Shown piece after piece: positions 1-48,048 of a DNA stretch of 64,000 nt. The position numbers were made by a program, and so were the translations under genes. The stretch's first letter is position 1. The number at the start of each line of letters is the position of its first letter. The stretch is taken from the NCBI GenBank assembly GCA_951406725.2, contig OX597828.1, forward strand, positions 73,842,001-73,906,000, written 5' to 3'. The stretch comes from Octopus vulgaris (Eukaryota). The notes under the pieces are model-generated. The model was not told where the DNA came from. It ran no database searches and saw only the letters and a program-made list of their open reading frames with translations.

Positions 1-130
1 CAAGACTTATACACACCCTGATACCGTCGGTATCTATATATCAAATTTGAGCGCAATCAGATAGAGGATACCCGAGATACTAGAAGACACACACACAGAC
101 AGACAGACAGAACAGATTTCACATAATAGA
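1..130 (-). mobile_element. 5' end of a non-autonomous Helitron-like element, running off the window
   Basis: Minus strand begins A|TCTATTATGTGAAAT, then (CTGT)n and GATTGCGCTCAAATTTG, the layout typical of invertebrate non-autonomous Helitrons. Confidence 0.5.
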
Positions 131-138
131 TATATATA

Positions 139-993
139 TTCAGGTGAAGGCCGGTTTATGTGATTACCTTGGGTTTCCCGTCCATAAAGGGATTAACTTT
201 ATGGCATATCTTCACACCCCAAGACCCCTTGGCCTATGACCTCTTTAACATATGTAGGAGAAAGTCTGGATTATCTCCTTTTGCTAATGGTTATCGACTT
301 TCGACTTTACTTCATCGATTAGTTATGTGGTTAAACCACGAGGGATGATTTCCCTTTCCGGTTGGCCATCAACTTCCGGTGGTTTTCAAAGGCCATCAGA
401 AATCTCCTAAAAGGCAAACATCGCCCGAAAATCTCCGTTCCGGAAATAAGCATAGCCCCTGACTCAAATGAGACCCTTAGGATTCTCGTGTGTTCAGCTA
501 TACATAGCTTGCAGCGTTTCGTCCTGTTAATGTAGGGGCCTGGGCTTTCGAGGATTTTCCATGAGATTGAGACTTCGAATGAGGATCCATAGTTGGAAAA
601 ACGTTTCTTGAATGAATTTTCGATACAAACAATCTATTTCCGTGGACGCGCGACGTAGGTGGTCCACCTATTATTGTCTTGTTGCCACTACTGATGCTGT
701 TGTTGTTCTGGCTATTGTTGATGTAGCTGGTCTTTCGGGAACGCCGAAATTTGACGGCTGAATGGGGAGAGAGAGATCTAATCCCCTGTTGCTGACCTTC
801 ATATAAGCTGATCGATAGCAGTACGGCAGAAAGTGGATAGCCATGAGCAAAGGGAGATAATCCAGATTTTTCCCCTCCATATTTAAAAGAGGATATAGGC
901 CAAGGGGTCTTGGGGTGTGAAGATACACTATAAAGTTAATCCCTTCATGGACGGCAAACCCAGAGTAACCCCATAAACCGGCCTTCACCAGAA
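139..993. mobile_element. MITE-like element with ~160-bp terminal inverted repeats
   Basis: 143-300 (GGTGAAGGCCGGTTTATG...) is the reverse complement of ~830-989 (...CATAAACCGGCCTTCACC). TA-rich flanks; no transposase ORF inside. Confidence 0.75.
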
Positions 994-1076
994 AAAATAT
1001 AGACTGTTCTACTTCGTCTCTGCATCTATGATTTTCTAAATACGATATACATATGTATATATATATATGTATATAT

Positions 1077-1422
1077 ACTTTATTTAAAGCAGCAGAAAAT
1101 TCAACAAAACCTGTTACTCTGAGTTTCCCATTGCCGTTCGTCGGACAGTTTTTGTTAGAATGGAACCGATATGTGAATTCTATCCAGACTACATGAATTC
1201 TATCCAGACTATATGAATTCTATCCAGACTATAGTCTGGATAGAATTAGAATTCACATATCGGTTCCATTCTAGCAAAAACTGTCCGACGGACAGCAATG
1301 GGAAACTCAGAGTAACAGGTTTTGTTGAATTTTCTACCGCTTTAAACAAAGCACATTACTCTACCACTGGTATTTGAGTACTCTTTTTTCTACCTTGTTT
1401 CACATTTATGTGTTTACTCCGG
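1077..1422 (+). mobile_element. Fold-back non-autonomous PLE-type element with a hammerhead-like motif
   Basis: 1077-1231 is the inverted copy of 1232-1352, followed by a unique tail to 1422. Three 20-nt tandem units lie at the apex. TA tracts on both sides. Motif CTGT-CCGACG(A/G)-...-GAAA-CTCAGAG-TA-ACAG at 1281-1318 (+) and 1111-1148 (-). Confidence 0.7.
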
Positions 1423-1632
1423 TATATATATATGTATATATATATATATATATAATAATAAATATTAGGGAATAAATCCAAATTTACAGGGAAAAAATCA
1501 GATTTAGGATTAAATCCAATTTTATAGTAAAATATTATAAAATATTATTAGAGACAAAACCACTATTTTGCAAAACAAACAAGGAAAGACTTAATCAATA
1601 CATAAAATTTTAATAAATAGTCAAAAAAACCG

Positions 1633-1675
1633 CCACTACAATTGTTTCTTGTCTTGATCGACAATCTTCAGGTGG
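1633..1675 (-). ncRNA. Type I hammerhead ribozyme (inverted pLTR copy)
   Basis: Exact reverse complement of 8944-8986. Confidence 0.85.
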
Positions 1676-2561
1676 ACTTCCAATCTAAAATATCAATATT
1701 TTAAAATATAAAAATAATAATTTTAAAATAATTAAAGTATGAATGAAAAAATATAAATATATAATCCATATATAACCTATATATAATCCATATATAATCA
1801 ATATATAAACAATATATAAACTAAAATAAACCTATCAACAATTAAGTATAAAATATAAAATATAAAATATAAAATATAAAACAAAACAAAAAAATAATAA
1901 TAATATAATAATAAACTATATATACACCCATACACATATAACTAATTATATATAACCATATCTAACTACATACACTAAATCACACACCTATATATATATA
2001 TCCCTATACATACACATAAAAACGTCTAGGCAACTATAAATAAATAAAATAGCTAAATACTTCAACACAATACTTATTCATACTCCCACACACACACATA
2101 CAACCCACATTCAGGCTCTAGAAAACGGACATCACTTAAAATTATGAACGGAGAAATGGAATAAATGGAATTAAAAATTATATTCACTTGGTAAAACGAA
2201 CACTACTTAAAAATTATGAATGAAACAATGCAATAAAACAACAGACATCGCAAATAGGCACAAATTACTACGAATTCCTTAACAAACCTACCATGATAAA
2301 CCAAAACTCATAAAAACATATATTGATAAAATCTCCCTTTACTAAACTCTATAACATACCTATATAGCAATCCCCCTAACCTAAACATTCACACACAAAT
2401 ACACACACGTAAACCACACACCCACGACATATACAAATACCCACACCACTTACACATACCTATACATACATATAAACCTCAACATATACTCCAAAAACCC
2501 ACTCAACCCCACACAGACAAATAAGATCGGCTTTACGCCTCACCAAACACTGCAAGATATA

Positions 2562-3212
2562 GACGCTAAATTATGGGCTAGGAATGATACTAGAGATTGT
2601 TTTGATATACATATGGGAGCACCAGATTCTGCACAGGCTACTGATTTAGTAGGTATTTTTCTTTTATCTGAACTCCAATTAGAAAATCTTAAGATAGAGG
2701 GTGGTTTATATAGAGACGATCTTCTACTAGTTACAAAGAATTGTACTAATAGGAATCTAGAAGTATATAAGAAAAAACTATATAGTTTCTTTAAAAGATA
2801 TGGTTTAAGTATTACTATATATAAGGAGAATTATAATGTTAATTATTTAGATGTTAATTTTAATCTTATTACAGGTAAAACACAACCATATCATAAACTT
2901 AATGAGAACCTTAGATATATAAATGTTAATAGTAATCACCCATTTTCTATTAAAAAATCGTTGATTAATAATATAAGTAAACGTATTTCATTACTCTCTT
3001 ATGATATAGAGATTTTTAATAAACATGCTAATTATTATAATGAGGCCCTTAGAGGGGCAGGTTATAATAGGAATATTAAATTTTATAATATTAGTGATAA
3101 AGATTTAAATGATAATTTTCAAGATACTTCTAATAATAATTATAATTTTGTTAGGTTTAGTGGTAAAAATAATAGATATTATAAAAAAAATAATAAAAAT
3201 GATAAAAATATA

Positions 3213-3247
<35 letters not shown>

Positions 3248-4160
3248 TAATAATAATAATAATACAAATAAGAATAATAAAAATAAAAATAAATTTAATA
3301 ATTATTATAATAATTATATTGATAAAATTAATAATATTAATAATTCCTTAAATGCTGTACATAGATATAATTCTGATAATAATTTTAATAAAATAAAGAA
3401 TTATAAATATATTTATAATAATGATAATAATAATAAGGTTAATAAGAATAAAATTTGGTTAATAGTTCCTTATGGAGATCAAGTAAAAACGAATATTATT
3501 AAAGAGATTTTTGATGTTATAGAACTATTTATTAGAGATAATCGTAAATATAGAAACATTTTCTCTTTTAATAATTTTGGAGTTGGTTATTCTACCACTA
3601 ATAATGTTGGTAACATTATTTCTTCATTTAATAAATATAAACTGAATAATTTTTATAAAAAGAAATTATTTGATAATAATATTAATAATGATAAGACTTA
3701 TATTAATTGTACATGTAGAGATAAATCTAATTGTATATTAAATAATAATTGTGATATTAACGATGTAGTGTATAAATGTATAGTTACATTACATGATAAT
3801 AACTTTAAGAATAATAATTACCCAAAAGCGGTTTATATAGGTTCTACTTCCTCAAAAATAAAACTAAGAATCGCACAACATATGAATTCTTTTAAAAATA
3901 AAAACTTAATCAACTCAACCGGACTTAGTAAGTACATTTGGAGTCTTAAATCACTAAATATTAATTATAGTTTAATTTGGGAAATAATTTGTAAAACTAA
4001 ATCATATACTATAGGAGCTAATTGTTGTTATTTATGCTCTAATGAGTTTAAAGAAATTTTATTTTATAAGTATGATAATTTACTTAATACTGGTGAAGAG
4101 CGCAAAATAAAATGCAGACATAAGTTACTTTACCTATATAATAAGTTTCATGATAAATAG
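2562..4160 (+). CDS. 5'-truncated PLE polyprotein: RT motifs 4-7, thumb, Asn-rich insert, C-terminal GIY-YIG endonuclease (probably Hydra clade)
   Basis: The frame is open upstream of the listed Met (W-ARNDTRDCFDIHMGAPDSAQATDLVG). Motifs GLYRDD, VNYLDVNF, YHK..YIN.NSNHP, CTCRDKSNC, VVYKC...VYIGST, R..QH, CYLCSNE, LLN, KCRH. N-terminal RT motifs are missing. Confidence 0.92.
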
Positions 4161-6425
4161 CATTAATAGTTCCCTATTAGGTTACTTTAGTTTAGTTTAA
4201 ATTAGTTTAGATAATTATATTTTTTGGTTATGTAGTCTAGGCTTTAATTATAGTTAGTCTTTATTGATATTTCTTTGTTTTAATTAGTTCATTTTTAATG
4301 TATATTAATATAACAGTTTATGGTATGTTCAAACTTTAATAATTTATATTAGATTTTTTTATTTTCTTTATTTATATATTTTTTTTTTTTTTATTTTATT
4401 TTATTATGTATTTTTATTATGCATTTGTTATATGTATTTTGGAGGATATATTTATATGTTGATGGGTGTTATTTAGTGGTGTATTTATTGAGTTTTGTAT
4501 GTATGTGTGAATGTTTACGATCCCTTTGTTTTTTGTTTTTTATTTGGTATGTTGAATTGACAGATTTTATTTGGGTATTGTCTGTTATAATAAAGTACAC
4601 ACACCCATAACAAATATAAGTGCCCACTTCATTCGCGCGTATCTGGAATTGCATGTGAGCCTCAACATATACACCAAACGGCCACTCCCGCCCCACACGG
4701 ACAAATAAACACATACATCCCCAAAAATGGGCGTAATCCCACTCACACCAATCATATATGTATACAATTATACACACTAGAATAATACATAACTAACCCA
4801 AATATACAGAACATACCAAAAATCACCAATAAACCACCATCACAAATGAAACCCACACCCATACAATGACAAAACTCCCCCTCCATACCCAATTTACACC
4901 CACATAGCAATCCCAATATTTTCATCCATACATGGACGCACGGGCGTGAAGCACATGCACACAACAAATACGTACAACCCCCCCAATACACACTCATATA
5001 CATACGTATTAAGCTCGACATCCACAGCAATACGCATACACCCACTCACACCCAGATGGGTGAGTTGCACAACCAGGGAACGCACAAACACGTGTGCGTA
5101 TTTTGATTGTGCAATTCGCCCATCTGCATGTATGCGGGCGCGATTACACCGTTGCACATATCGAGCCCAACTAGCATGCATATGTACATGTGAGGGGGTA
5201 CACGCACATGCCGTGCGCGTGTACCCCCTGCATTTATACCCGTGCGTGAATATACACATGGAGACTACCACACAGGTTCAAATGTGTATAGTAAAGGGAG
5301 CCCCATCACTTCACTCAATGTATACTCTCACCCATCCGCACGGATGTGAAAGCGAATCACCGGTGTATATATTGAGGCTAATACGTAGCGCTGTGGAGTT
5401 GAACGTCGTTGAAATTGTGAATGAATGGGTGGAGTTGGGAATTGTAACCGGGTGGTGGGCTAGCGTTGCTTGGAATTGGGAATGGAATAGTGTAGTAGTA
5501 AGGCAGGCATCGAGAATAGACTTGGGTTACTGCAAGTTGTTTGTTAGAGCTGCTAAGATGAGCTAAAGCTCATAAATGTATATAATAATTTATCATGGTA
5601 GTTTTATTAAAGAATCCATTCATAATAAATTTTTTTTTTTAAGTAGTGATGGTTTGCCACGTGTATATAGTTTTTAGTTCCATTTATTCTATTTCTCCAT
5701 TCATAATTTTAAATGACGTTTACTTTCCATGGCGCGTATTCTTTTTATACATAAGTTATATTTCTATGGTAACGTAATTTTGGTTTGATTTTTTTAACGG
5801 CTAAGAATTTAATTTCACTTCATAATTTGAAACTGACTTGTAAGTATGTATTTTATTTCTCCTTATGTCATATTGTTATTTTTGATATTCTGGTTAATTA
5901 CGATGTATTTAATGTTGTTTTTCATTGGAGTGTTTATGTATATGAGATTGTGTGTGAGTTTTTAGTTGTATAATTTATTTATCTGTATGAGTGTGGGTGT
6001 GTAAATATTGTTGTATATATCGAGTTTAGTGAGTATGTATATGCGTATATGTGAGGGAGTATATGTATCTGTTGTATGTGTGTGTTTTGCGTGTGTGTGT
6101 GTTTGTGTGTGAATGTGTATATGGGTTTGTTATTTAGGTTTTGGGATGTATGTGTTAATTTGTCTGTGTGGGGAGGGAGTGGGTTTTTGGTGTATATTGA
6201 GGTTTATAAGTTAGTATAGGTATGTGTGAGTGAGGTGGGTATTTGTATAAGTCGTGGGTCTGTGGTTTACGTGTGTGTATTTGTGTGTGAATGTTTAGGT
6301 TAGGGGGATTGCTATATAGGTTTGTTATAGAGTTTAGCAAAGGGAGATTTTATCGTTATATGTTTTTAAGAGTTTGGTTTATCATGGTTTTTTTTTAGGG
6401 AATTCGTGGTAATTTGTCTATTTTC

Positions 6426-8916
6426 GATGTTGGTTGTTTTATTACATTGTTTCATTCATAATTTTTGAGTGGTGTTCGTTTTGCCACGTGAATATTATTT
6501 TTAGTTCCATTTATTCCATTTCTCCATTCATTATTTTAAAAGATGTTCGTTTCCAGAGCGGTTATACTTTTTATACATATGTTAAGTTCCTTGGTAAAGT
6601 AATTTTGTTTGGTGTATATGTTGAGGCTTATATGTACTTGTGGGGGTGTGTGAGTGGGGTGGGTGTTTGTATTTGTTATGGGTGTGTGGTTTACGTGTGT
6701 GTATTTGTGTGTGAATGTATAGGTTAAAGGGATTGCTATATAAGTATGTTATAGTGTTTAGTAAAGGGAGGTTTTATCATTTATGTTTTTGTGAGTTTTA
6801 GCTTATCATGGTAGTTTTATAAAAGAATCCATTCATAATTTTTGTGTTTATTTGTCTGTGTGGGGTTGAGTGGGTTTTTGGAGTATATGTTGAGGTTTAT
6901 ATGTATGTATAGGTATGTGTAAGTGGTGTGGGTATTTGTATATGTCGTGGGTGTGTGGTTTACGTGTGTGTATTTGTGTGTGAATGTTTAGGTTAGGGGG
7001 ATTGCTATATAGGTATGTTATAGAGTTTAGTAAAGGGAGATTTTATCAATATATGTTTTTATGAGTTTTGGTTTATCATGGTAGGTTTGTTAAGGAATTC
7101 GTAGTAATTTGTGCCTATTTGCGATGTCTGTTGTTTTATTGCATTGTTTCATTCATAATTTTTAAGTAGTGTTCGTTTTACCAAGTGAATATAATTTTTA
7201 ATTCCATTTATTCCATTTCTCCGTTCATAATTTTAAGTGATGTCCGTTTTCTAGAGCGTGAATGTGGGTTGTATGTGTGTGTGTGGGAGTATGAATAAGT
7301 ATTGTGTTGAAGTATTTAGCTATTTTATTTATTTATAGTTGCCTAGACGTTTTTATGTGTATGTATAGGGATATATATATAGGTGTGTGATTTAGTGTAT
7401 GTAGTTAGATATGGTTATATATAATTAGTTATATGTGTATGGGTGTATATATAGTTTATTATTATATTATTATTATTTTTTTGTTTTGTATTTATATTTT
7501 ATATTTTATATTTTATATTTTATACTTAATTGTTGATAGGTTTATTTTAGTTTATATATTGTTTATATATTGATTATATATGGATTATATATAGGTTATA
7601 TATGGATTATATATTTATATTTTTTCATTCATACTTTAATTATTTTAAAATTATTATTTTTATATTTTATTTCCGATGTTGGTTATTTTATTACATTGTT
7701 TCATTCATAATTTTTGAGTGGTGTTCGTTTTGCCACGTGAATATTATTTTTAGTTCCATTTATTCCATTTCTCCATTCATTATTTTAAAAGATGTTCGTT
7801 TCCAGAGCGGTTATACTTTTTATACATATGTTAAGTTCCTTGGTAAAGTAATTTTGTTTGGTGTATATGTTGAGGCTTATATGTACTTGTGGGGGTGTGT
7901 GAGTGGGGTGGGTGTTTGTATTTGTTATGGGTGTGTGGTTTACGTGTGTGTATTTGTGTGTGAATGTATAGGTTAAAGGGATTGCTATATAAGTATGTTA
8001 TAGTGTTTAGTAAAGGAGGTTTTATCATTTATGTTTTTGTGAGTTTTAGCTTATCATGGTAGTTTTATAAAAGAATCCATTCATAATTTTTGTGTTTATT
8101 TGTCTGTGTGGGGTTGAGTGGGTTTTTGGAGTATATGTTGAGGTTTATATGTATGTATAGGTATGTGTAAGTGGTGTGGGTATTTGTATATGTCGTGGGT
8201 GTGTGGTTTACGTGTGTGTATTTGTGTGTGAATGTTTAGGTTAGGGGGATTGCTATATAGGTATGTTATAGAGTTTAGTAAAGGGAGATTTTATCAATAT
8301 ATGTTTTTATGAGTTTTGGTTTATCATGGTAGGTTTGTTAAGGAATTCGTAGTAATTTGTGCCTATTTGCGATGTCTGTTGTTTTATTGCATTGTTTCAT
8401 TCATAATTTTAAGTAGTGTTCGTTTTACCAAGTGAATATAATTTTTAATTCCATTTATTCCATTTCTCCGTTCATAATTTTAAGTGATGTCCGTTTTCTA
8501 GAGCGTGAATGTGGGTTGTATGTGTGTGTGTGGGAGTATGAATAAGTATTGTGTTGAAGTATTTAGCTATTTTATTTATTTATAGTTGCCTAGACGTTTT
8601 TATGTGTATGTATAGGGATATATATATAGGTGTGTGATTTAGTGTATGTAGTTAGATATGGTTATATATAATTAGTTATATGTGTATGGGTGTATATATA
8701 GTTTATTATTATATTATTATTATTTTTTTGTTTTATATTTTATATTTTATATTTTATATTTTATATTTTATACTTAATTGTTGATAGGTTTATTTTAGTT
8801 TATATATTGTTTATATATTGATTATATATGGATTATATATAGGTTATATATGGATTATATATTTATATTTTTTCATTCATACTTTAATTATTTTAAAATT
8901 ATTATTTTTATATTTT
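6426..8916 (+). repeat. Near-identical tandem duplication (~1249-bp period) in the PLE 3' region, built from shorter diverged subrepeats
   Basis: 6426-7668 matches 7675-8916. ORF-track peptides 6434-6727 and 7602-7976 share identical C-termini. Confidence 0.9.
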
Positions 8917-8943
8917 AAAATATTGATATTTTAGATTGGAAGT

Positions 8944-8986
8944 CCACCTGAAGATTGTCGATCAAGACAAGAAACAATTGTAGTGG
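8944..8986 (+). ncRNA. Type I hammerhead ribozyme in the PLE pseudo-LTR
   Basis: CCAC-CTGAAGA-TTGTC(GATCAA)GACAA-GAAA-CAATTG-TA-GTGG: intact CUGANGA/GAAA core, palindromic stem III, GUA cleavage triplet. Confidence 0.88.
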
Positions 8987-9073
8987 CGGTTTTTTTGACT
9001 ATTTATTAAAATTTTATGTATTGATTAAGTCTTTCCTTGTTTGTTTTGCAAAATAGTGGTTTTGTCTCTAATA

Positions 9074-9137
<64 letters not shown>

Positions 9138-9138
<1 letters not shown>

Positions 9139-9210
9139 GTAACCACATGTGAATCGCTGGCGATTTTCTACCTCCGTCTTCCTTTTCTATTGGAGTTTCC
9201 TCTGTTTCTG
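9138..9210 (+). mobile_element. Fragment of the hammerhead element family seen at 31546-31785
   Basis: TGTAACC...TCGCTGGCGATTTTCT...TCTTCC...TTTCTGA aligns to the reverse complement of 31681-31759 and stops inside the CTGA core. Confidence 0.6.
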
Positions 9211-9432
9211 AGTCGTGGCAGGCCGTGCAAGACGGCACTGAAGTCCACCCTGCGTTCACACTCGCTACTCGACCCGAACAATCAGTCAAAATGCTGTTGA
9301 AAGGCCTCACACATTTTACTTGGCTCGAGTAATTGGCACCACTGTTCATCTACCAGAGACCGAATGGTTTCTTTGTTACCCGTTGCGACCCCGACACCCG
9401 GGCCTCTCGCGCGGCTCCAACACCTTTGTTCC

Positions 9433-9433
<1 letters not shown>
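9205..9433 (-). pseudogene. Tx1/L1-type LINE ORF2 fragment (endonuclease-RT linker)
   Basis: Minus translation ETIRSLVDEQWCQLLEPSKMCEAFQQHFD*LF...DFSAVLHGLPRL resembles the L1/Tx1 ORF2 linker. It abuts (GATA)n like the copy at 10978-12245. Confidence 0.6.
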
Positions 9434-9507
<74 letters not shown>

Positions 9508-9632
9508 CAGATAGATAGATAGATGCGGTGAAGCATTTTAATCCCGGCGACAAAACTCACAAACAGGAGTGTACATACAAAACTGGTTTGCACTGCTTAT
9601 TCAGACCGAGTTACACTGGCACTCCTCTCACA

Positions 9633-9691
<59 letters not shown>

Positions 9692-9746
9692 TCTGCGAAG
9701 GTTTATTTAAACTATTTGTTAAAATATCTGAAAAGTAATTAGGTGT

Positions 9747-9818
<72 letters not shown>

Positions 9819-10138
9819 ATGTGTGTGAGTGTGTCTACATATAGTGTGAATATAAAAGAGTATTTTGTGCTGCTAGCAATATGTTGTAGATTTTGGGTAC
9901 CATCGACGTTATGTACGAGAGATTGGATTTTCTTTCTATAAAATTTGAAAATGTTTTACATTACTAAATATTGAAAACTTAAATAGCTCGAAGGATGGTT
10001 ATGTACTTTTGCGTACACGCACAAAGACACACACACACAGACATATACACATGAACGTAAACACCGATATACATAAAAATGTTTGTGTTTTTGCGTGTGT
10101 GTGTGTGTGTGTGTACATTCAAATGTGTAAATGTACAG

Positions 10139-10367
10139 ATGAGGTGGGGGCCGGGTACTGAAAAGTTCCTGGCTTTGGGTAATAGAAAATACTGGAGGAT
10201 CAGTTAATTATGATTTTATTCAATATTACCCCCTCTCAAACCCAAAAATTTATTGCATTTGTCCTTTAGTTTTTTTCTAGGCCCTGTAAAAGTACTTGGA
10301 ATGTTGGGCCCCCGACCAGACATTTCGCGAAACCCTTTCAGCCAGGAACTTTTCAGCACTCCTCGTA
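10139..10367. mobile_element. Mariner-type MITE
   Basis: TIR core CTGAAAAGTTCCTGGCT / AGCCAGGAACTTTTCAG. The right end is ...CCTCG-TA, as in mariner TIRs. Confidence 0.7.
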
Positions 10368-10482
10368 TACGTATTCATCTATGTGAATGCATATATTGCA
10401 CACAGAATAATAGGCAGACAGACAGACATGCTGACAGACGGACAGGCAGGCAGGCAGCCGGACAGGCGGATATGTAAATATA

Positions 10483-10677
10483 TTTTCTGCTCTAGGCACA
10501 AGCCCCGAAATTTTTGATGAGTCTGCCAGTTGATTAGATCGACCCCAGTACACAACCGACACTTAATTTATCCACCTCGAAAGGAAAAAAAAGGTAAAGT
10601 CGACCTCGGCGAAATTTGAACTCAGAACGTAAAAACAGACGAAATTCGTGCTAACGTTTTTGCCAGCTCACCGCCTT
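10483..10677 (-). mobile_element. tRNA-derived SINE, family B, with a 13-bp target-site duplication
   Basis: Head GGCGGTGAGCTGGCA, GAGTTCAAATT B-box and GTCGACTTT body. GATATGTAAATAT occurs at 10469 and 10679. Confidence 0.8.
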
Positions 10678-10977
10678 AGATATGTAAATATTAAAATGTA
10701 TTTTGTGCTGCTAACCATAATTATAAACAGCAGATATATCGTAGAATTTGAGTTCTGTCTATGTTATGTACGGAGTAATAAATATGTTTAGTATTTGAAT
10801 ATATTTTACCTTACTAACTATTAAAGTCGTCAATTGTTCGAAGGATATATAGATATATACATATATGCACGATATATATTATAAAGAAACATCTCGTATA
10901 CTCATCGATAGATAGATAGATAGATAGATAGATAGAGATAATAGAGAGATAGAGAGATAGAGAGATAGATAGATAGA

Positions 10978-12244
10978 AATGATTCTTTATTAGCCACACA
11001 GGGCTGCACACAGACGGGACAGATTACAAAGTAGAGCTTTTCTTTTTGGGGGAGAAAAAAAAATAAAAAGGTGAGGTAGGTTTTCGATCAAAAGGGATCG
11101 TAAAAGGGAAAGAAGAAAGAAAAACAAAGGAAAAGAAACAAAAGAAGAAAAAAAAGATCAATAGGTATCGTGTATCACAATGTCATGATGTACGATGTAA
11201 AGGTGGAAGCAGATAAGGTTTATCCGTGGGAAGAAAAGCCTACGGAAAAGACCACGGTAACCTCGGTCAATATTGTTACATGTTACCACATTTGTTTGCA
11301 AGTAGGTAACCCTCTGTTTTAAATTTCCGGGTTCATAAGATTATGCTCAAGGTGGCTTCGTCATTCACACGTGCCATCCTTGCTACATTCACCCAACTTT
11401 TTTTAAAACATTCGCTAGACAAAACTTGCCTCTCTACTCTCACTTTCCTTTTCAAGTGATACTTGAAGAAGTTGATGAGAGATTGACCAGAGAGGAAAGT
11501 GTTTGTCTCTACACCTTTCAGACGCGTCCACCAGATACATTCTTTCGCCATAGCCACAAGGATGATGAAAATAGCTCTTCCTTCCCGTTTGAAGGGAGGA
11601 GGCGTGACAATATTGACGATAGACTCGGCTGATAAACCGACTCGTTCCACACGGAACAGCAGTCGTTCGACATAAGCCCACAGGTCGGAAATGGTTGGAC
11701 ACTGCACAAGTGCGTGCAGAACGGTTTCGTCGCTCTGACCGCATTTCGGGCAGGTCGGCCCCGTGTTTCTCGAGCCATGTCTGTAGAGCTTATCGCAAAC
11801 GGGTAGCACTTCTCGGTAGCACTGCCAGGCCAGGGATCTCTGGAGGTTGTCCATGGGCCCTGGCCCGAAAGTCGTCCTGAACAGGCGGGTCAGGTATTCC
11901 TCGTCGACGTCCAGGTTCGCCCCGAGCTCGTCGTCGTACCTCCCCTCCACTAATCCCCTATAGAGTGCTTTGGTTGTGTTGAGGTCGCTCAAGTTCGACC
12001 CGGGACGGCATGGGTGCTTGAGAGCAGCGCGACACTCGCGGTGCCATTCGCCCTTTCTCGGCCTCTTTTTTGATCCACGACTGCAGTTCGGTCATGGAGA
12101 CGAGTTGCAGGAAAGCGTGCCTCACAAACGGCGACCACACCTGTTCACACCTGTTCACCGTCCTCTACGTAGAGCCTGATATGTCGCAGTCTCAGCGACA
12201 TCTCAGGCTCTACGTAGACGACGGTGAACAGGTGTGGTCGCCGT

Positions 12245-46148: not shown

Positions 46149-48048
<1,900 letters not shown>

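Follow-up and report, generated by a model that had tools for sequence, protein, structure and literature searches.

The stretch analyzed here, referred to as the window, comprises 64,000 nucleotides of Octopus vulgaris DNA (GenBank assembly GCA_951406725.2, contig OX597828.1, positions 73,842,001 to 73,906,000 of the forward strand), and positions are counted from its first letter. Between 1423 and 9138 it carries a young, Hydra-like Penelope retroelement, in which a 5'-truncated open reading frame (ORF) is followed by a long 3' untranslated region (UTR) containing a large inverted repeat. The best explanation of this repeat, to which we give a probability of about 85%, is that ADAR hyper-edited a duplex in the element's RNA and that reverse transcription fixed the edits as A>G changes, repeatedly, in an amplifying lineage.

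The inverted repeat and the history of the UTR

An initial annotation, made from the letters of the window, had described an ungapped pairing of 4604-4679 with 6607-6682 whose mismatches are almost all G.U wobbles on the transcript strand. Its count is reproduced exactly: 56 Watson-Crick pairs, 17 G.U, 0 A.C, and 3 other mismatches, with the G of the wobbles on the arm 1 side in 9 and on the arm 2 side in 8. Register shifts of 1 to 3 nt in either direction leave just 17-29 Watson-Crick pairs, and the pairing is not a register artefact. When G.U and A.C receive equal scores, a scan lengthens the pair to 4598-4679/6607-6688 (62 Watson-Crick, 17 G.U, 0 A.C, 3 other) and detects further G.U-rich blocks, among them 5472-5589/7045-7162 (73 Watson-Crick, 31 G.U, 3 A.C). 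The skew is opposite in two of the 16 blocks listed, 4892-5001/5174-5283 (7 G.U, 33 A.C) and 4981-5086/5093-5198 (9 G.U, 21 A.C), because an older edited layer inside them was flipped back by a second inversion. The comparison proposed in the annotation, with inverted pairs elsewhere in the window, gives a balanced result (24 pairs, 180 G.U to 215 A.C), and the counts are 2 to 4 in the palindrome at 1078-1351 and 9 to 7 in the inverted ends at 131-1001. The element's own 5' inverted copy (1532-2524 against 8096-9088) is unedited, with 0 G.U and 1 A.C; it need not have been a duplex in RNA. The 17 to 0 ratio is itself partly compositional, since arm 2 holds only 9 A and 2 C, and the evidence therefore comes from polarizing the changes with relatives. 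By the vote of 20 outgroup modules, the 17 wobbles arose through 9 A>G and 5 C>T changes in arm 1 and 3 A>G changes in arm 2. At site 6657 the nearest modules have A, and with this letter as ancestral the tally would be 13 A>G and 4 C>T. As reconstructed in this way, not every wobble is an edit: 12-13 of the 17 are A>G, and 4-5 are C>T. The module at 6184-6284, paralogous to arm 2, is unedited.

The source of the arm is found in related copies. The 76-nt arm 1 lies at the tip of a ~1-kb segment, 4596-5590, which over its full length and apart from one internal deletion matches the reverse complement of UTR 1463-2592 of family C (inversion 2), and family C UTR 1668-2100 is in turn inverted relative to family C2 (inversion 1). 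Among 20 further close copies, 12 have the arm, two (family C) have its un-inverted source, four (C2) lack both inversions, and two have short UTRs. The sister subfamilies, whose endonucleases are 88-94% identical, have G+T-rich modules and no match to the A+C-rich arm at 60 loci. A tree built on UTR segments without a partner places the sisters outside, then C2 (un-inverted and basal), C (inversion 1), and B/B'/A'/A (inversion 2, 100% support). Exact matches to the junctions come from at least 33 heavily edited copies, at least 6 lightly edited ones, and at least 12 without inversion 2; the lineage kept amplifying, with its ORFs intact.

A>G changes in paired segments

For inversion 2, the ancestral state was taken from the 1077 of 1130 sites at which the two family C copies have the same letter, and a segment was called paired, a status deduced from complementarity, when its local complementarity to other parts of the UTR reached 75% or more. 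In the arm of the window, 75 of 234 paired adenosines have become G, versus 2 of 146 unpaired ones (p 7e-16). Over the same arm T>C is found at 2/94 sites and G>A at 2/29, while neither C>T (19/135 paired, 12/134 unpaired, p 0.25) nor transversions (26/492 and 17/447, p 0.35) depend on a partner. All 24 arm-bearing copies tested, which take in 12 of the 35 young copies, agree, with 33-80 paired and 1-4 unpaired A>G changes, and the contrast is stable at partner thresholds of 0.6-0.8. The other side of the putative duplex is changed as well. On the partner strand, where 1057 of 1270 sites were polarized, A>G reaches 21/139 at paired and 1/98 at unpaired sites (p 1.3e-4), and T>C 3/306.

The annotation had predicted the neighbor preference of ADAR, with 5' G depleted, and this is what the arm displays: edited adenosines number 59/85 after A, 33/53 after U, 19/67 after C, and 3/15 after G (p 2e-7). 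The bias survives permutation within 50-nt bins (p 5e-5), none of 19 partner-strand adenosines with a 5' G is edited, and the rank A~U > C > G is the ADAR order. At the 3' side, where the annotation had predicted an enrichment of G, A is slightly favored, as invertebrates are reported to show, the arm having A 51/86, C 38/79, U 25/53, and G 0/2 (p 0.17, with 2 G sites only) and inversion 1 A 33/51, C 32/57, U 30/66, and G 3/5 (5 G sites only); on the partner strand 8/24 adenosines before G are edited. In the hyper-editing motif described for invertebrates and octopus, 5' G is depleted and the 3' G preference is weak (PMC5625713; here and below, papers are cited for those of their parts that were accessible). 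The deaminase domain PF02137 is found at four loci of the octopus genome, which are predicted to encode host ADAR-family deaminases, whether ADAR1, ADAR2, ADAD, or ADAT.

Inversion 1 is an earlier, independent instance of A>G change after inversion. Copy L141, compared with C2, has A>G at 73/135 and 29/53 sites (102/188 in all), T>C at 0/103, C>T at 3/106, G>A at 1/22, and 7 transversions, on a branch with about 0.03 substitutions per site elsewhere. The spectrum of L133 resembles that of L141, and edited sites by 5' neighbor are U 43/60, A 29/54, C 25/58, and G 1/7. Across 80 loci, a filtered BLAST search recovers clean inverted blocks dominated by G.U from the copies that have the arm and from those of family C, the blocks at other loci being only weak or of low complexity; simple repeats dominate an unfiltered antidiagonal scan of 56 sister UTRs. 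Older subfamilies contain G.U-rich inverted blocks in L091 (UTR 449-605/720-876, G.U to A.C 36:1), L096 (449-584/745-881, 32:1), and L110 (488-887/3280-3681, 67:20). These blocks, unpolarized and of low identity, may reflect earlier rounds or composition.

Editing can be followed along the lineage. Five family B copies have 33-62 paired A>G changes in clusters that differ among them, and the paired G count climbs within the arm-bearing clade from 33 (L143) to 80 (L134). Two tandem copies in a single insertion (L142) differ by 25 substitutions across a 390-nt piece of the arm, 21 of them A/G, and by only 2 A/G and 3 other substitutions over the remaining ~650 nt. This would fit RNA templates edited separately, although two differently edited parents would look alike. 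Meanwhile, the longest perfect Watson-Crick run shrinks from 54 nt in the unedited source to 23-28 nt in B and 13-22 nt in B', A', and A. On internal branches of the young family A>G is still partner-biased (12/312 versus 2/270, p 0.015), and editing in the window's family seems nearly spent.

A second process acts on the sense strand. On internal branches of the young family, counted after removal of transitions 2 nt or less from a gap, of reconstructions that were ambiguous, and of columns with fewer than 12 copies, C>T is found at 42/413 sites versus 6/745 for G>A, and A>G at 19/952 versus 6/1540 for T>C. The C>T changes are equally frequent in paired (19/172) and unpaired (19/168) segments. 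In the UTR of the window (4161-9088) and in L031-L068, the diffuse C>T bias is enriched in 5' A and 3' G/A contexts, and changes away from G/T are scarce. From the polarized sites, this drift probably accounts for the minority of the wobbles noted above, and it may sustain the G+T-rich UTR; candidate sources are RNA-level C deamination, transcription-linked damage, and selection on composition.

Weighing the explanations

The following sequence of events can be proposed. Two successive inversions in a Penelope-like 3' UTR set sequence opposite its own repeated modules, so that long duplexes are predicted to have formed in the UTR RNA. In these, between a third and a half of the adenosines with a partner were likely deaminated by host ADAR. 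Reverse transcriptases (RTs) read inosine as G, and the element's own RT likely fixed the inosines as A>G in new genomic copies. Editing would have slowed as I.U pairs, now G.U, broke the perfect helices, while a separate and diffuse sense-strand C>T drift, blind to pairing, would have supplied the remaining wobbles. More tentatively, and with the odds rather against it, recurring cycles of inversion, ADAR write-back, and C>T drift may have built the multi-kilobase G+U-rich UTR, fresh inverted repeats becoming wobble duplexes that escape the surveillance of double-stranded RNA and editing by the host thereby rescuing the element instead of restricting it.

Several points weigh against editing followed by write-back. 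The case is built from genomic DNA, and inosine in the RNA is inferred from it. At a partner threshold of 0.9 the paired/unpaired contrast falls to 41/112 versus 36/268, and arm bins 201-300 are nearly unedited though their scored partner is 72-83% identical. The change at 6620, counted on the partner side, also occurs in the arm and is older than the pairing. No single nested fold can accommodate all the edited partner modules, and the minimum free energy (MFE) fold of L050 joins arm 1 to a different module, so that alternative conformers must be assumed. Sites with a 5' G are few (15 in the arm, 19 on the partner strand, 7 in inversion 1), and the outgroups consist of just two family C and four C2 copies. 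Finally, C>T dominates the internal branches of the young family, whose 19 A>G changes lack an ADAR-like context, and no privately hyper-edited copy is found in this family, with 0-5 private A>G changes per UTR among the 45 segments listed.

A general strand-biased drift toward G+T on the sense strand, eroding any inverted A+C-rich segment whether paired or not, was our first reading of the skew, and plain C>T/A>G drift was dropped once un-inverted relatives had polarized the changes. Such drift is real for C>T, as the internal branches and their equal paired and unpaired rates attest; sister subfamilies are G+T-rich although they lack the arm, and the drift explains 4-5 of the 17 wobbles. As an account of the whole pattern it is improbable, for A>G depends on the partner, being 20-fold higher where one exists. 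Moreover, inversion 1 has 102 A>G but 3 C>T, and two-fold sites of the ORF remain A-rich (A 134 to G 39). The converse error, in which the arm would keep the ancestral letters and the un-inverted modules would have lost C by C>T, borrows plausibility from the same drift and is the least credible of the alternatives: T stands at the 9 sites in 17-20 of the 20 outgroup modules, sister subfamilies included, the G count rises within the arm-bearing clade, the L142 tandem copies differ in both directions, and the nested pattern of edits among copies contradicts it. APOBEC-type editing, which would give sense G>A, does not fit the spectrum, with 1/22 such changes in inversion 1, 2/29 in the arm, and 6/745 on internal branches.

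The initial annotation had left two alternatives, editing written back by the retroelement or selection for a wobble-tolerant duplex. Under the latter, purifying selection would pass wobble-forming changes only. The scarcity of G>A and T>C on internal branches (6 each) speaks for it, as does a sense UTR fold of -1015 kcal/mol versus -610 for the antisense, a difference that G+U richness would lead one to expect and that was calculated without a shuffle control. Changes that break pairs have not been eliminated, however, transversions being no rarer in paired segments of the arm or of the internal branches (30/1271 versus 25/913), and C>T, equally wobble-forming, is not raised. For these reasons a selected wobble duplex fails; in addition, selection removes changes and cannot account for 30-55% A>G along so short a branch, and relatives exist without the arm or with a UTR of ~200 nt (L137, L147). 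We thus regard it as very unlikely. Even less weight is given to misincorporation of dC opposite A by the element's RT as it unwinds a structured template, without any host deaminase. Errors of this kind would likewise be linked to the duplex and fixed at reverse transcription, and to our knowledge the fidelity of a Penelope-like RT has never been measured. However, the 5'-neighbor order matches ADAR, the rate drops as perfect helices shorten though G.U helices persist, and we know of no RT that makes one transition at ~50% density. Write-back of edits by the retroelement, the first of the annotation's alternatives, is what the data support: the A>G changes are confined to the duplex, occur on both strands, are clustered and 5'-G-depleted, and recur after two inversions.

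The element, its relatives, and known systems

The features of the element are collected in Table 1. The window copy is cut at its 5' end at about 2567, has an inverted 3' end with its tail on the left (1455-2524), and sits in a (TA)n target. A DNA search of the genome gives at least 73 matches (40 of 514 candidates scored), most of the long ones being 92-98% identical. The unit measures ~6.2 kb from the ORF start with a 3.65-kb UTR, which is longer in the window because of a private duplication. Of 48 copy ends, 21 run into (TA)n and 27 into the tail or the next unit, with the same tail continuation at these 27. Full-length copies encode a protein of ~840 amino acids, and a frame of 839-862 codons is open in 5 of 15 long copies examined. 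This protein has the Hydra-clade motifs KWK (RWK in most homologues), DKT, CTCRDKSNC, CYLC, and CRH, and no CCHH. RT and GIY-YIG motifs are conserved across 22 aligned proteins, although Pfam finds neither domain in the element's protein P0001 and RVT_1 and GIY-YIG in one of the 22 members each; a PDB search with the ORF protein has a best E of 0.92. Between RT and endonuclease, residues ~490-610 of P0001 are a long insertion of low complexity, rich in Asn and Lys, the ORF being ~130 amino acids longer than most homologues.

Table 1. Features of the retroelement, its UTR, and the inverted segments (window coordinates)
Feature	Position	Strand	Remarks
Arm 1 of the initial annotation	4604..4679	+	9 A>G, 4-5 C>T
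Arm 2 of the initial annotation	6607..6682	+	A>G at 6640, 6642, 6646, 6665, probably 6657
~1-kb segment inverted relative to family C (inversion 2)	4596..5590	+	77 A>G of 380 ancestral A, 75 with partner
Most edited part of the arm (about half of adenosines); left limit approximate	5390..5590	+	Bins 951-1100: 13/24, 13/28, 11/24
Older hyper-edited layer (inversion 1), turned back by inversion 2	5094..5387	-	A>G 44/90 and 14/32 on minus strand
Partner module of ~4913-5079, with A>G	5941..6130	+	
Partner module of the 5390-5590 arm, with A>G	6334..6480	+	
(TA)n, left end of insertion	1423..1465	.	
~75-nt tail ending the inverted copy	1455..1531	-	Follows 3' end in tandem units (compared with L050)
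Inverted copy of the element's last 993 nt, pseudo-long-terminal-repeat (pLTR) type	1532..2524	-	Formed at present insertion; hammerhead at 1633-1675
5'-truncated ORF	2567..4160	+	RT C-terminal part (YRDD), Asn-rich linker, CxCX5C, GIY-YIG-type endonuclease
3' UTR/pLTR, G+T-rich modules	4161..9088	+	4.9 kb in window, 3.65 kb in L050
Tandem duplication of 1249 nt	6419..8917	+	6419-7668/7668-8917, 99.5%; in window copy only, among 38 loci
Type I hammerhead motif	8944..8986	+	Stem I CCAC/GUGG, CUGAAGA core, GAAA, short palindromic stem III
(TA)n, right end of insertion	9080..9138	.	

The pLTR is predicted to contain a hammerhead of canonical Hydra type. Its layout matches the Hydra-clade hammerheads in the supplement of PMC8557442, and stem II covaries between subfamilies. 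The MFE structure calculated for 8925-9000 differs from the motif (z 0.21), and an Rfam search of 1-12000 has no match at the gathering score, the hammerhead falling below the matches listed. It lies only ~200-240 nt past the stop codon, or the UTR is very short, in L073, L079, L084, L099, L137, and L147, which suggests that the element can do without a multi-kb UTR or has acquired it. Young copies commonly have internal 5' inversions (L031, L041, L061, L062, L063, L066, L067), and fresh duplex substrates therefore keep arising. Hydra-clade Penelope-like elements are described with RWK-like, DKT, CxCX5C, and CxxC/CxH motifs, no CCHH, a canonical hammerhead, and a (TA)n target (PMC8557442). The window element shares these motifs, the hammerhead, (TA)n, the inverted 5' copy, and the tail, but Hydra-clade elements are generally under 3 kb (PMC8557442): listed families measure 1.1-3.0 kb, and Hydra-1_Obim has 2507 bp and a different hammerhead. 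The element is named Hydra-like because its unit is twice the listed length. Elsewhere in the window are a second Penelope-type fragment (46284-47244, plus strand; weak GIY-YIG match, E 4e-4), another Penelope-like 3' fragment on the minus strand (131-1001) with inverted ends and balanced mismatches, a palindrome resembling a miniature inverted-repeat transposable element and holding a 20-nt tandem repeat (1078-1351), and a 3' fragment of a long interspersed nuclear element (LINE) with zf-RVT (11333-12091, minus strand).

These sequences suggest that in an invertebrate A-to-I editing has repeatedly been turned into heritable changes of the DNA, within a still-active element whose before and after copies coexist in one genome. 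This would imply that ADAR is active in the germline or the early embryo, and would give a fossil footprint of RNA segments paired in vivo. It also offers a simple genome-wide test, since comparing internal inversions in Penelope or LINE copies with un-inverted relatives should reveal the extent of ADAR rewriting. Write-back into host genes receives no support here. The deaminase-driven reverse-transcription mutagenesis hypothesis, in which ADAR edits are copied into DNA, concerns host genes in somatic cells (PMC11817618), whereas for the octopus case the RNA and RT of the element itself suffice.

Other systems share parts of the pattern. "DNA editing" of long terminal repeat (LTR) retrotransposons by APOBEC, reported as absent from 19 invertebrate genomes, likewise leaves clusters of a single substitution in genomic retroelement copies that relatives can polarize; it is, however, sense G>A made on cDNA with no tie to an RNA duplex, whereas the octopus changes are A>G and duplex-confined (PMC4866542; PMC2873906). 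RNA hyper-editing of repeats is among the highest in octopus, and the RNA of a lizard Penelope is heavily edited (PMC5625713); in squid, ubiquitous edits lie in repeats (PMC9068888). These edits too form A>G clusters in double-stranded RNA with 5'-G depletion, but they are differences between RNA and DNA, while those of the octopus element stand in genomic DNA (PMC5625713; PMC9068888). In the literature covered, which left aside subscription journals and bioRxiv supplements, no report was found of genomic ADAR-type editing in Penelope or another active non-LTR family, and an earlier description is possible. The closest precedents are the inverted repeat of avian leukosis virus and the RAV-1 U3, where ADAR-type A-to-G hypermutation was described in proviruses (Felder et al., 1994, and Hajjar and Linial, 1995, as summarized in PMC12925331). 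As in the octopus element, nearly 50% of A became G in an inverted-repeat region and the changes were fixed by reverse transcription (PMC12925331). The avian cases are single clones of exogenous retroviruses, whereas the octopus element is endogenous, of non-LTR type, and heritable, with two inversions, edits that build up over copy generations, and intact ORFs (PMC12925331). Thus, within the literature covered, such editing was known from retroviral proviruses, and what is new is serial, heritable editing along an expanding lineage whose unedited ancestors are still in the genome.

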